Virus record (IMG/VR): IMGVR_UViG_648276660_000017
Strand: one strand, 5' to 3'
DNA from: a virus
Taxonomy: Duplodnaviria > Heunggongvirae > Uroviricota > Caudoviricetes
Length of the DNA stretch: 2,895 nt
Shown here piece by piece: positions 1 through 2,895 of this stretch. Under the pieces are notes generated by a model that saw only the letters and a program-made list of their open reading frames with translations, ran no database searches and had not been told where the DNA came from. Numbering within the stretch: position 1 is the stretch's first letter; every line of letters begins with the position of its first letter. A program made the position numbers and the translations under genes.

Positions 1-135
1 ATCGCCGCAGCCAATCCGGCTACTGTGCTGGCACTACTGGATGAAAACGAAAGACTGTGTCGCGAGCTGATAGCTCGTAATGGTGAGATTGAAGGGCTTC
101 GGAAGTGGGCAGAAGAACGGGAGATGCAACCATGA
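1..135 (+). CDS. 3' end of an upstream gene (5'-truncated by the window edge); Ead/Ea22-like segment
   Basis: Frame +1 is open from base 1 to TGA 133-135. Translation: IAAANPATVLALLDENERLCRELIARNGEIEGLRKWAEEREMQP. The motif IAA-x-NP-x2-V-x2-LLDE-x-ER recurs in the next gene (aa 67-84, nt ~330-383) and matches my recollection of the Ead/Ea22 phage family. The stop overlaps the next start codon (ATGA, 132-135), as expected for a translationally coupled operon. Confidence 0.6.
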   Translation: MAAANPATVLALLDENERLCRELIARNGEIEGLRKWAEEREMQP

Positions 136-1061
136 TGACTTTTACCAGCGAACAATTAGCTACCTTACGTAAGATAGCGCAACAGGCAACACAGGGCGAA
201 TGGCGTGCATTCATCTCGCCGGACACTGGTACATATGCGGTGCATACGCCGGGGGATGAACGTTGCGGAGACATTATCAAATGGCCTGGCTTTGACGACC
301 AGAAAAATGCAGAGAACAACGCAGAATTTATCGCAGCTTTCAACCCTAAATTAGTGCAGACACTGCTGGATGAACGGGAAAGAAACCAGCAATACATCAA
401 ATCACGCGACCAGGAGAACGAGGATATTGCGCTAACGGTAGGGAAGCTGCGCGTTGAGCTTGAGGAGGTGAGAGCAAAACTCAATGAACAACGCGAGTAT
501 TACGAGGGAGTAATCGCGGATGGAAGTAAGCACATAGCAGAACTGGAAAAACAATGCGCCGAATGGGAGCGAAAAGCATTAAGCAACTTTGAAGAGTGTG
601 CTGCGATGGCTGAACGTATCGAAGAGATGCAGACAAAATCTGCACCAGATTCGTTTGGCATCATCGGTGAAAATATTCGAACACAGGATAATCGAATAAC
701 GTCAGATCCTATGTTTTGTGTGTATCAAAAGCGCGAAATCGTTGTTGATGCTGATTATGACTATGACCGGATTGTCTGGGTTGATGAAGATGGCAATGAA
801 GCCAATAAACTCCAAAGTCGTCGTCTCGAACTACTTCATGAAAACTTTCGGGAGCCACCAGAAAAATGGCGGCGCGTTGCTGTGAAAGATATTGATGAAT
901 TCGTTACCTGCTGTTTCACCGAACAGGGTTGTAAAGACTACCTGGCAGCCAATGGTCACAATCTTCGCTTGCCATTTATATATGTAAAAAGCGGTTTCAG
1001 GAACGCTGAATATATCGGCATAAGAAACTGGCTTGCTGGTATTCGCATCAAAGGAGACTGA
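132..1061 (+). CDS. Ead/Ea22-like family protein, 309 aa: N-terminal Ead/Ea22-like domain, central coiled-coil, C-terminal ~145-aa domain of unknown function
   Basis: Long ORF in frame +3, stop TGA 1059-1061. Preferred start is ATG 132 (second in-frame ATG at 135), with GGGAG at 118-122 as Shine-Dalgarno about 9 nt upstream; the ORF-track start at 105 is a GTG with no better RBS. N-terminus (EQLATLRKIAQQATQGEW ... NAEFIAAFNPKLVQTLLDERER) fits the Ead/Ea22-like pattern as I recall it. Residues ~85-165 are rich in E/K/R/Q/L, consistent with a coiled coil. The C-terminal part (DSFGIIGENIR ... FIYVKSGFRNAEYIGIRNWLAGIRIKGD) is not recognisable to me. Confidence 0.8.
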   Translation: MMTFTSEQLATLRKIAQQATQGEWRAFISPDTGTYAVHTPGDERCGDIIKWPGFDDQKNAENNAEFIAAFNPKLVQTLLDERERNQQYIKSRDQENEDIALTVGKLRVELEEVRAKLNEQREYYEGVIADGSKHIAELEKQCAEWERKALSNFEECAAMAERIEEMQTKSAPDSFGIIGENIRTQDNRITSDPMFCVYQKREIVVDADYDYDRIVWVDEDGNEANKLQSRRLELLHENFREPPEKWRRVAVKDIDEFVTCCFTEQGCKDYLAANGHNLRLPFIYVKSGFRNAEYIGIRNWLAGIRIKGD

Positions 1062-1062
1062 T

Positions 1063-1272
1063 ATGGCTATTGCCGCAAGTTACACCATGCATCTCTATTG
1101 TGATTGTCGCCAGTGTACGGAAGGTGTATATCCAGTGCCAGACTTCGGTGAGTATATCGGTACGTCATGGTCTGGTTGTGCAAAAGAGGCCCGTAAAGAC
1201 GGGTGGCGAATAAGCAAAGACAAAACACGTACTTTTGCGCCCGGGCATAAAGTTTTGAGGATTAACACATGA
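1063..1272 (+). CDS. Hypothetical 69-aa mini-protein with a Cys cluster (C13-x-C15-x2-C18 ... C39), possible zinc-binding
   Basis: ATG 1063 is preceded by a near-consensus Shine-Dalgarno AAGGAG (1052-1057) and lies 1 nt after the stop of the preceding gene. Its stop TGA 1270-1272 overlaps the next start ATG 1269-1271 (ATGA). Translation: MAIAASYTMHLYCDCRQCTEGVYPVPDFGEYIGTSWSGCAKEARKDGWRISKDKTRTFAPGHKVLRINT. The ORF-track start at 1033 is a TTG lying inside the upstream gene and is less likely. Confidence 0.6.
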   Translation: MAIAASYTMHLYCDCRQCTEGVYPVPDFGEYIGTSWSGCAKEARKDGWRISKDKTRTFAPGHKVLRINT

Positions 1273-2042
1273 CCACTATTACCAAAGAACGTATTGAATT
1301 GTTCATTAAAAATCCGCTTGAAAACGGGCTTACTCGTGGCGAACAAATGGAACTGGCACGAATTGCACTGGCATCACTGGAACGCGAACTGATTCGCCAC
1401 GAGCATGCCAAATGGTCTGACTCCACATTTGGCTGCGTTGGCCCCATTGGTCCACTGAAACACCTCTCAAAAGAGGCTCTGGAAGCCGCAGCCGAACCAG
1501 ACGATCTCAGCGAGTGGGCTGATATGCATTTCCTGTTGTGGGATGCACAGCGCCGTGCTGGCATCAGCGATGCTGAAATTACCGCTGCTATGGAAGATAA
1601 ATTGAAGATCAACATGGAGCGCCAGTGGCCTGAACCAAAAGATGGTGAGCCTCGCTTGCACATTAAAGAACCCGGCAACTCTCCGGTAATTCCGGATGGT
1701 TTATCCACGGTATGCGCTGAGGCTTATCAGGTTGTAGGAGTTATGGCAGATGCGCTTGGTGTATTCGGTGATGCAGCAGTACAGAAAGTTCTGGATAACC
1801 TGTCACAGCAAAAACTTGTTCACAGAGATGTGCTGCCGTTCTCGCTTCCGGTAACTCCGGATGGTTGGATAAGCTGTAGTGATCGAATGCCGAACGACGC
1901 GCAGTGGTGCGTAGTGAACACAGAATACGGGTATTACGTGCAATGCTGGTCTGAAGGTCAAGGGTGGCTTGGTGATGATATCAGCATCCCTAAATGCGAT
2001 GTAATCAATTGGATGCCTCTACCAGAACCGCCGCAGGGGTGA
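1269..2042 (+). CDS. Two-domain phage protein, 257 aa: N-terminal MazG-like NTP pyrophosphohydrolase (DUF550 / dATP-dGTP diphosphohydrolase N-terminal type) fused to C-terminal DUF551
   Basis: ORF in frame +3, ATG 1269, with GAGG at 1256-1259 about 9 nt upstream; stop TGA 2040-2042. The N-terminal region carries an acidic E-x2-E ... E-x2-D arrangement (KEALEAAAEPDDLSEWADM, aa 68-86), typical of all-alpha MazG/HisE-type NTP pyrophosphatases. The C-terminus (DGWISCSDRMPNDAQWCVVNTEYGYYVQCWSEGQGWLGDDISIPKCDVINWMPLPEPPQG, aa 198-257) matches the DUF551 signature as I recall it (WIS..DR.P ... W.....WMPLPEPP). DUF550 and DUF551 are commonly fused in prophages of Enterobacteriaceae. Confidence 0.85.
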   Translation: MTTITKERIELFIKNPLENGLTRGEQMELARIALASLERELIRHEHAKWSDSTFGCVGPIGPLKHLSKEALEAAAEPDDLSEWADMHFLLWDAQRRAGISDAEITAAMEDKLKINMERQWPEPKDGEPRLHIKEPGNSPVIPDGLSTVCAEAYQVVGVMADALGVFGDAAVQKVLDNLSQQKLVHRDVLPFSLPVTPDGWISCSDRMPNDAQWCVVNTEYGYYVQCWSEGQGWLGDDISIPKCDVINWMPLPEPPQG

Positions 2043-2108
2043 AATGATGCTTGGCCTGAAGTATTTTATGTAATTGGTATTGCTATATTTTTATCTGGGG
2101 ATAAACGA

Positions 2109-2351
2109 ATGTTCTCTCTGATTCAACGTGGTCAGATATACACCGATAGCGCTGGCTATCCAGTAAAAATCATTCGTAGTACTGATCACTCAGTATTCTT
2201 CAAGAGGATGGATGGCTATCCTGGAAGAGTGTGCATCAGAAAATTCAATAATTTATTCGAACACATTGATCACAGAGAATATCACCAGATCCTGGCTGAA
2301 ACAGAACAGGAGAACCATCTGAAAAAATTACGTGCTATGCAAAGGAGATAA
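2109..2351 (+). CDS. Hypothetical 80-aa protein (possibly DUF4222-like) in an AT-rich moron-like pocket
   Basis: ORF in frame +3, ATG 2109, with GGGGA at 2096-2100 about 8 nt upstream; stop TAA 2349-2351. Translation: MFSLIQRGQIYTDSAGYPVKIIRSTDHSVFFKRMDGYPGRVCIRKFNNLFEHIDHREYHQILAETEQENHLKKLRAMQRR. The pattern G-x2-Y-x-D-x2-G ... V-x-F-x-R-x2-GY ... C ... F resembles small DUF4222-type phage proteins found near integrases, but this is recalled and unverified. GC is lower than in the upstream genes (about 37% in a 60-nt hand-counted sample, against about 53% in a sample of the DUF550/551 gene). Confidence 0.65.
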   Translation: MFSLIQRGQIYTDSAGYPVKIIRSTDHSVFFKRMDGYPGRVCIRKFNNLFEHIDHREYHQILAETEQENHLKKLRAMQRR

Positions 2352-2400
2352 ACCGGTAAAGGTGTTCGCGATAAAGGTGAATATCGGCAATGAATAACAA

Positions 2401-2430
2401 TCCTCGCACTCGCGGGGATTTCTTTTATCT
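2401..2430 (+). terminator. Hairpin plus U-tract (terminator- or attenuator-like), first of a tandem pair
   Basis: Inverted repeat tcctcgc (2401-2407) / gcgggga (2412-2418) with 4-nt loop actc: 7 bp including one G-U wobble at 2404/2415. Followed by tttcttttatct (2419-2430). Confidence 0.35.
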
Positions 2431-2458
2431 GAACTCGCTACGGCGAGTTTTGTTTTAT
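2431..2458 (+). terminator. Hairpin plus U-tract (terminator- or attenuator-like), second of a tandem pair, immediately upstream of the 55-aa gene RBS
   Basis: Perfect inverted repeat aactcgc (2432-2438) / gcgagtt (2443-2449) with 4-nt loop tacg, extendable by a G-U pair at 2431/2450. Followed by ttgttttat (2450-2458), which runs into the GGAG at 2459-2462. Confidence 0.4.
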
Positions 2459-2469
2459 GGAGATGATAA

Positions 2470-2637
2470 ATGCACTTCCGAGTCACAGGTGAATGGAATG
2501 GAGAACCATTCAACAGAGTTATCGAAGCAGAGGACATCAACGACTGCTATAACCACTGGATGATATGGGCGCAGATAGCGCATGCAGACGTAACCAATAT
2601 TCGAATTGAAGAACTGAAAGAACACCAAACCGCCTGA
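2470..2637 (+). CDS. Hypothetical 55-aa mini-protein (absent from the supplied ORF track, probably below its length cutoff)
   Basis: ATG 2470 in frame +1 with GGAG at 2459-2462 (7-nt spacer); stop TGA 2635-2637 sits in the loop of a strong intrinsic terminator hairpin. My translation: MHFRVTGEWNGEPFNRVIEAEDINDCYNHWMIWAQIAHADVTNIRIEELKEHQTA. Composition is balanced and protein-like. I believe I have seen near-identical hypothetical proteins next to xis/int in enterobacterial prophages, but cannot name a family. Confidence 0.6.
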   Translation: MHFRVTGEWNGEPFNRVIEAEDINDCYNHWMIWAQIAHADVTNIRIEELKEHQTA

Positions 2638-2650
2638 TGGCGGTTTTTTA
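2627..2650 (+). terminator. Rho-independent terminator downstream of the 55-aa gene and upstream of xis
   Basis: Perfect 8-bp stem aaaccgcc (2627-2634) / ggcggttt (2639-2646) with 4-nt loop tgat and a GC-rich core (ccgcc/ggcgg), followed by a run of six T (2644-2649). The hairpin followed by a T-run is oriented for + strand transcription. Confidence 0.7.
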
Positions 2651-2694
2651 TTGCCTGATTTGCAGGTTCGATTCCCTATTCGGAGATAGCACTC

Positions 2695-2895
2695 ATGCAA
2701 CACGAACTACAACCTGATTCACTGGTTGATTTGAAATTCATCATGGCCGATACTGGCTTCGGTAAGACCTTCATCTATGACCGGATTAAGTCCGGCGACC
2801 TGCCTAAAGCCAAAGTTATCCACGGGCGAGCAAGATGGTTATATCGTGATCATTGTGAATTCAAAAATAAGCTCTTAAGCCGCGCCAATGGGTAA
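2695..2895 (+). CDS. xis: Excisionase / AlpA-family helix-turn-helix DNA-binding protein, 66 aa
   Basis: ATG 2695 with GGAG at 2682-2685 (9-nt spacer); stop TAA 2893-2895 is the last triplet of the window. Translation: MQHELQPDSLVDLKFIMADTGFGKTFIYDRIKSGDLPKAKVIHGRARWLYRDHCEFKNKLLSRANG. The segment IMADTGFGKTFIYDRIKSG followed by a basic wing (GRARWLYRDHCEFKNK) has the layout of AlpA/Xis-type small winged-helix proteins. Position at the distal end of an early-left-type operon is where lambdoid phages place xis, just before int. Confidence 0.7.
   Translation: MQHELQPDSLVDLKFIMADTGFGKTFIYDRIKSGDLPKAKVIHGRARWLYRDHCEFKNKLLSRANG

Follow-up and report, generated by a model that had tools for sequence, protein, structure and literature searches.

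Between an Ea22-like gene and a DUF550/DUF551 gene of a lambdoid prophage lies an open reading frame (ORF) of only 69 codons, coupled tightly to both. The question it raises is whether so small an ORF is a working gene, and whether its product serves the flanking proteins or acts on its own.

The locus and its gene family

The window, by which we mean the whole stretch of 2,895 nucleotides that was analysed, is the exo-xis (early-left, pL-transcribed) accessory region of a lambdoid prophage. Its genes follow one another on the plus strand: the end of an Ead/Ea22-like gene; a gene for a 309-residue Ea22-like protein (PF13935); the 69-codon ORF; a DUF550+DUF551 fusion, the DUF550 part of which is a dATP/dGTP pyrophosphohydrolase (PF04447); a DUF4222 gene; a 55-codon homologue of lambda orf55; and an excisionase-like gene. 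In Escherichia coli CFT073 the corresponding prophage is found at icd and the region is flanked by exo/bet/gam and xis/int; in the Stx2 phage VT2-Sakai the gene is orf7, and there too it lies between exo/bet/gam and xis/int. No sigma-70 promoter-like site was found on either strand of the window (1–2895), where 4.6 ± 1.9 were expected from shuffles, and this fits one long early transcript; terminator-like hairpins number 10 against 2.2 expected, and the two observations together are consistent with an antiterminated pL read-through transcript.

Two of the surrounding genes deserve a remark of their own. The 309-residue Ea22-like protein (132–1061) is a mosaic, residues 11–139 matching the Ead/Ea22 domain and residues 156–308 matching another PHROG, phrog_3205, with several cysteines (…FVTCCFTEQGCKDY…). 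The 55-codon ORF (2470–2637), bracketed by terminator-like hairpins at 2399–2420, 2431–2450 and 2627–2646, is identical to lambda orf55 (lambdap35; phrog_676) at 52 of 55 residues; a T7 Gp2-like RNA-polymerase-binding fold has been proposed for lambda orf55 by modelling (PMC8614690).

The 69-codon ORF occupies positions 1063–1272 of the plus strand, from the ATG at 1063–1065 to the TGA at 1270–1272, and encodes MAIAASYTMHLYCDCRQCTEGVYPVPDFGEYIGTSWSGCAKEARKDGWRISKDKTRTFAPGHKVLRINT, which is identical to WP_000951713.1 of E. coli CFT073, annotated “hypothetical protein.” A Shine-Dalgarno sequence, AAGGAG (1051–1056, plus strand), stands 6 nt before the start codon, where the Ea22-like gene upstream still encodes its last residues (K-G-D); the junction itself reads TGA-t-ATG (1059–1065, plus strand), the Ea22-like stop codon at 1059–1061 being separated from the start by the single nucleotide T1062. 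At the downstream junction (1257–1272, plus strand) GAGGA at 1257–1261 serves as the Shine-Dalgarno sequence of the DUF550/DUF551 gene, whose ATG (1269–1271) overlaps the stop codon of the 69-codon gene in the string ATGA (1269–1272). An earlier note, made from the sequence of the window, had described this geometry, and direct reading agrees with it in the start, the stop, the AAGGAG, the 1-nt gap and the ATGA overlap; the residues it named (C13, C15, C18, C39, H10 and H62) and its basic stretch KEARKDGWRISKDKTRTF (residues 41–58) are likewise where it placed them. The ORF listing also offers a TTG start at 1033, giving 79 residues; because a Met aligned to residue 2 opens 103 of the 137 homologues in our alignment, we take the ATG at 1063, with its Shine-Dalgarno sequence, as the real start.

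The protein belongs to phrog_926: residues 1–68 match profile positions 1–68 of 69 (E = 3.6e-36), and all of the 120 diverse homologues tested match the same profile. The earlier note had not recognised a family; one is thus catalogued, its PHROG annotation being “unknown function.” Scans of the ORF against Pfam, NCBIfam and PADLOC gave no match (Pfam and PADLOC at E ≤ 0.1), a Pfam scan of the 120 homologues gave scattered sub-threshold matches only, and we could not identify any homologue of named or tested function, every database name being “hypothetical protein.” In the literature searched, on the exo-xis region, its zinc proteins and phrog_926, we found no treatment of the 69-residue gene. 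Most experiments on the exo-xis region have been done with phage Phi24B; by annotation, its int-to-N region contains no gene of matching size (about 210 nt).

The distribution of the family is wide. Megablast found the gene in 666 of 5,426 complete E. coli genomes (12%, about one in eight), and tblastn found it in 433 phage and 253 plasmid records. These include, at 32–54% identity, the virulent Ackermannviridae (Kuttervirus, Taipeivirus, Limestonevirus; 38–46% identity), Rogunavirus (32%) and Vibrio megaplasmids (45–54%); lambdoid and Stx prophages, temperate Klebsiella phages and E. coli phage-plasmids are also among the carriers. When 1.84 billion representative proteins were searched exhaustively with the family profile, 328 clusters (at 50% identity) came back at E ≤ 1e-3, nearly all of them stand-alone proteins of 60–90 residues, and a strict-pattern scan of genome contigs found the gene in five species-level genomes. 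Pairwise dN/dS, calculated for 33 distinct close alleles (490 pairs), has a median of 0.048, and the ORF is, judged by its conservation, a genuine gene under strong purifying selection.

Some database entries stand apart. An 88-residue chimera (P0036/P0039/P0041; loci L099 and L100, 3501–3767) is common in E. coli prophages, occurring in 176 blocks of the collection, and has replication gene P on one side and the gene for the small terminase on the other; its first 33 residues, with C13, C15 and C18, are those of phrog_926, and the frame then continues into a Cys-rich C-terminus of unrelated sequence (…CCGKCGERVPVNSCPCNGDSQC…). P0046 (134 residues) is a tandem duplication of the mini-gene read as one protein, in which the first copy, lacking its last ~10 residues including H62, is followed by a complete second copy. 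We found no informative domain fusion in the longer homologues P0086, P0114, P0066, P0166, P0157, P0052, P0036, P0184 and P0059; the impression of a Lar-like C-terminus in P0086 was not confirmed by Pfam, and the match to P0101, a metalloproteinase that carries fibronectin-II repeats, is spurious. An 87%-identical copy on a 427-bp contig of Xanthomonas pisi DSM 18956 (L104) is probably enterobacterial or phage contamination, not a true Xanthomonas gene.

We compared the surroundings of the gene in lambdoid phages, Ackermannviridae, Klebsiella phages, Rogunavirus, three Vibrio plasmids and metagenomic phages. In every lineage examined it sits within an array of small, early accessory genes, and an all-against-all comparison of the flanking ORFs across these distant contexts revealed no family common to the lineages. 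In Ackermannviridae the gene comes after one for a membrane PH-domain protein and closes an operon in which dCMP deaminase is also encoded. In one Vibrio megaplasmid (L007, homologue at 3998–4213) its neighbours are a UmuD/UmuC-like pair and an orphan N6 DNA methylase, and in another (L009, homologue at 3998–4201) only 15 nt separate it from a preceding Phd/RelE toxin-antitoxin pair; both surroundings resemble accessory or anti-defence islands.

Predicted fold and proposed role

AlphaFold2 was run twice, with 13 and with 101 aligned sequences and with no metals in the models, and returned the same secondary structure each time (pLDDT 82.4 and 84.0; pTM 0.63 and 0.67): a strand at residues 7–12, a short helix at 16–19, a strand at 28–33, a helix at 36–45, and short strands at 48–49 and 56–57. 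The protein is thus confidently predicted to form a single domain of about 60 residues with β-β-α-β-β topology, and the BFVD model of a homologue from Klebsiella phage KpS110 superposes on ours with a TM-score of 0.72. Residues 19–27 (1117–1143, plus strand) form a loop that varies in length and sequence among the aligned homologues, whereas the helix at 36–45 runs into the near-invariant motif A43-R44-x-x-G47-W48 (1168–1206, plus strand), in which A43 is kept in 134, G47 in 136 and W48 in 136 of 137 homologues. Solved structures include no significant match to the predicted ββαββ domain, and a PDB sequence search with the single protein returned nothing meaningful.

Basic residues are conserved at positions 41, 44, 45, 49, 52 and 54 and the tails are rich in Lys and Arg. 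The median pI of the family is 8.6; 74% of its members carry a net positive charge and 25% are neutral or acidic, and for the core alone the median is +1. The earlier note had seen in the basic C-terminal half a layout suited to nucleic-acid binding; the conserved basic positions and the predominance of positive members speak for this, and the near-neutral core tempers it, so that the suggestion is weakly supported.

From the distribution and the predicted structure we propose, as a reading that we consider somewhat probable, that the gene is a self-contained phage accessory gene whose product is a zinc-clamped binder of a host or universal target, acting alone early in infection. On this reading the gene moves as a cassette of its own, with a short conserved junction at either end. 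That the mini-protein acts alone and early would follow from the places where the cassette occurs: temperate phages, virulent phages, phage-plasmids and megaplasmids that are unrelated to one another, invariably inside an array of small early genes, and beside neighbours that change from case to case. Because the cassette works in such different genomes, the protein would be a small binding module for a host-encoded or universal target, not for a phage-specific operator or partner. Such a target could be nucleic acid or the acidic surface of another protein, and contact would be made through the face formed by R/K41, R44, K45, R49, K52 and K54 together with the basic tail. We put forward the host-encoded or universal nature of the target tentatively; metal identity, ligand geometry, expression timing and the kind of target are all inferred.

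Two specific versions of this proposal are live. In the first, the protein would be a counter-defence or host-takeover inhibitor that binds one specific protein of the host, for instance a factor of immunity or of the stress response, and blocks it. This mode of action is shared by many small proteins made early by phages, and the setting among small early accessory genes that recurs in each lineage, the movement of a single-gene cassette between unrelated phages and plasmids, and the neighbours on the Vibrio megaplasmids (the methylase and UmuDC-like pair in one case, the Phd/RelE module in another) would all suit such a function. However, the protein matches no PADLOC model (0 families at E ≤ 0.1) and has no named relative, and it is basic, whereas DNA-mimic anti-restriction proteins are acidic; in this specific form the explanation is unlikely. 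The second version, to which we give slightly less credence still, is a zinc finger that binds DNA or RNA and thereby controls the expression of genes of the phage or the host. The basic residues conserved on the helix and on the hairpin after it, the Lys/Arg-rich tails and the mostly positive net charge point in this direction, as does a marginal profile match between the helix-GW segment and helix 1 of plant ZF-HD homeodomains (E = 0.011). That match, however, extends over only ~40 residues and leaves out the recognition helix, no helix-turn-helix or known DNA-binding Pfam domain was found, and the charge signal is modest in pI, in the core and in the neutral or acidic quarter of the family. 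A sequence-specific regulator would moreover be expected to stay with its operators, whereas the cassette is found in unrelated genomes with no shared neighbours.

For the broader proposal of an autonomous early binder, a single-gene cassette under strong selection in such different genomes probably has a target common to the hosts. It is a further and doubtful step to see in phrog_926 a new zinc-binding fold, a β-β-α-β-β domain whose metal ligands can migrate between the N-terminal and C-terminal knuckles, a broad early effector against one conserved host target, or both. The users of such an effector may be phages and plasmids of Gammaproteobacteria and of the hosts of the metagenomic members, and its target may be, for example, a component of immunity or nucleic-acid processing. 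The gene is present in Stx2 phages such as VT2-Sakai and in virulent phages of the therapeutic type (Kuttervirus, Taipeivirus, Limestonevirus).

A predicted zinc site with exchangeable ligands

The ligands were analysed in alignments of 137, and then of 207, distinct homologues. Strand β1 (residues 7–12) leads into an N-terminal knuckle, Y12-C13-D14-C15-x2-C18 (together 1081–1116, plus strand), as seen in the AlphaFold2 models and in the conservation; the cysteine codons lie at 1099–1101 (C13), 1105–1107 (C15) and 1114–1116 (C18). C13 is kept in 136 of 137 homologues. A C-terminal knuckle, A59-P60-G61-H62 (1237–1248, plus strand), would supply the fourth ligand through H62 (codon 1246–1248), since position 62 is His in 87 and Cys in 48 homologues, that is, one or the other in 135 of 137 (~98%), and P60 is present in 129. 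Besides P60, the near-invariant positions of the 137 homologues include G47, W48, A43, Y7 and Y12.

The larger alignment divides into two types. C15 is present without C59 in 96 homologues and C59 without C15 in 101, nine have both and one has neither; one of the two positions is thus Cys in 206 of 207 and exactly one in 197. The protein encoded in the window, with Ala at position 59, is of the C15 type, and C18 is present in all 96 of these; the sister subtype, with Cys at position 59 (YCD...CPxC or CPxH), has a loop Cys or His after C13 in 101 of 101. This near mutual exclusion, for which the Fisher test ignores the kinship of the sequences, looks like a swap of ligands at the sequence level. 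Since at least 21 switches between the C15 and C59 types are needed on a neighbour-joining tree calculated with the ligand columns left out (~60 columns, and noisy), the split does not go back to a single ancient event.

C18 or a loop Cys/His is found in all of the homologues, and every member tested therefore has four Cys/His positions available. Such behaviour would be expected of a structural zinc site that ties together the loop which follows strand 1 and the turn which follows strand 4. Most likely a single metal ion, Zn(II), is held by C13, C15, C18 and H62, the N-terminal and C-terminal knuckles clamping the fold through it; both the ligand geometry and the identity of the metal are read from conservation. 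The small metal-binding module that the earlier note had suspected is in this way supported in its CxCxxC part (C13, C15, C18). Its wider Cys/His set fares differently: the position of H10 is mostly Asp among the homologues, and C39 (1177–1179), which the note had listed beside the cluster, lies on the helix at 36–45 and is Cys in only 82 of 137, being otherwise Thr, Ala, Val or Ile. Because this is the pattern of a buried helix position, C39 is, on the alignment, a buried helix residue and not a ligand, and H62 would take the place that the note had given it.

The same residues might instead bind iron, as in rubredoxin, or form redox-active disulfides, and the all-Cys set of the sister subtype and the CxxC-like spacing of C15-x2-C18 could be read in this way. 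However, His swaps freely for Cys at position 62 and in the loop, the ligands migrate as is typical of structural zinc, and no rubredoxin or thioredoxin family was matched, which makes iron or disulfides very unlikely. With a defined ligand set, C39 as a built-in negative control and a natural swap of C15 and C59, the protein lends itself readily to structural studies and pull-downs.

Junctions, neighbours and known systems

The close contexts were studied in 75 related viral loci (94–100% identity), where the upstream string AAAGGAGAnTGAtATG (1047–1065 of the window) is kept behind differing upstream genes, and the downstream string ATGACCACTAT (1266–1285; MTTIT...) is kept in front of many different downstream proteins. 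The upstream neighbours in these close relatives comprise more than eight unrelated proteins, and the downstream neighbours range from 46 to 538 residues with different bodies, several of them without DUF551. The two strings look like the boundaries of recombination modules that carry the Shine-Dalgarno, stop and start signals, the linker in effect including the last three codons of the upstream gene and the first five codons of the downstream gene. The previous junction in the window, at 132–135, is likewise ATGA; since this is so, and since the same junction strings occur in 75 loci with differing flanks, the 1-nt gap and ATGA geometry is not peculiar to the 69-codon gene. With variable neighbours, conserved junctions and a second ATGA in the window, we take the coupling as the building style of the region and not as a sign of partnership.

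The CFT073 locus (L001, 5012–9332) offers an observation on the state of the neighbours. There an Ea22-like gene is split by ISEc10, of the IS21 family, a frameshift has left the gene directly before the mini-gene incomplete, and the gene downstream is annotated as incomplete; the 69-codon gene is intact and identical to that of the window.

The earlier note had read the coupling as a hint of matched stoichiometry with the Ea22-like and MazG/DUF551 neighbours, in which case the protein would be a stoichiometric subunit or chaperone of one or both. The tight coupling on both sides agrees with that idea, and in the majority of close relatives, as in two Klebsiella elements (46% identity), the gene after the cassette does end in DUF551. 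Against it stand the more than eight upstream types, the downstream genes that lack DUF551, the broken or incomplete neighbours beside an intact mini-gene in CFT073 and the generic nature of the coupling. Nor is adjacency maintained across lineages: in Ackermannviridae, Rogunavirus, the Vibrio plasmids and the metagenomic phages neither an Ea22 nor a DUF550/DUF551 gene adjoins the mini-gene, and no neighbour family is shared. The expectation of matched stoichiometry is therefore unsupported and a subunit role hardly credible; a loose functional link to DUF551 may exist, given how often such a gene follows, but in our view the frequent follower does not amount to a partnership.

The chance that the ORF is spurious or decaying, a by-product of the junction sequences, is negligible: its small size and the existence of truncated or chimeric database entries (P0014, P0023, P0036) are outweighed by the low dN/dS, the confidently predicted fold and full-length homologues at 30–46% identity with in-frame loop indels in unrelated phage families, and C13, C15 and C18 are conserved where the earlier note would have taken unconserved cysteines as the mark of a spurious ORF. 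That the gene is real, its zinc structural and the gene autonomous is, as a joint claim, very probable in our judgement.

How does this protein compare with systems already described? The SWIM zinc finger (CxCxnCxH) shares the CxC, but the C-terminal knuckle of the present family is [A/C]-P-x-[H/C] and not CxH, and there is no Pfam match. The marginal resemblance to the plant ZF-HD homeodomain (PDB 1WH7 and 1WH5) is a family-profile match over residues ~26–66 that includes the “A..GWRI” helix end. By topology, domains of the protein G B1 / protein L type, likewise β-β-α-β-β, belong among the closest known systems.

Within the same phage region, the closest analogue by position is Ea8.5 of lambda, a hybrid homeodomain/zinc-finger protein (PDB 2M7A; PMC8614690), which is likewise a small zinc-binding protein encoded between ea22 and xis. 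The order in lambda is ea22 - ea8.5 - orf55 - xis, and in the window Ea22-like - ORF - DUF550/DUF551 - DUF4222 - orf55 - xis. Homology between the two was rejected (hhalign probability 1.1%), the family profile did not match the Ea8.5 homologues in the PDB, and the secondary structure predicted for the 69-residue protein is unlike that of Ea8.5. Lambda Orf73, of the TraR/DksA group, is another small zinc-binding protein of the exo-xis operon, and a TraR/DksA gene lies upstream of the mini-gene in the CFT073 copy; with its C4 zinc finger, Orf73/TraR-DksA shows how a small protein made early by a phage can work directly on a host machine, here RNA polymerase (PMC8614690; PMC9239242). A TraR/DksA finger was rejected for the protein studied here (no Pfam zf-dskA_traR match at E ≤ 0.1, and none among the top families of the 120 homologues), which differs in its ligand layout and fold and in lacking the N-terminal acidic DxxDxA helix.

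A small Cys-rich phage protein is by itself no surprise for specialists. The phrog_926 entry and the small zinc-binding proteins of the same phage region, Ea8.5 and Orf73/TraR, were already known; the description of phrog_926, the unannotated family to which the ORF belongs, holds neither a zinc site nor a ligand swap nor a fold. What is new is the lack of a solved relative for the fold, the ligand assignment, the ligand swap and the breadth of the distribution.
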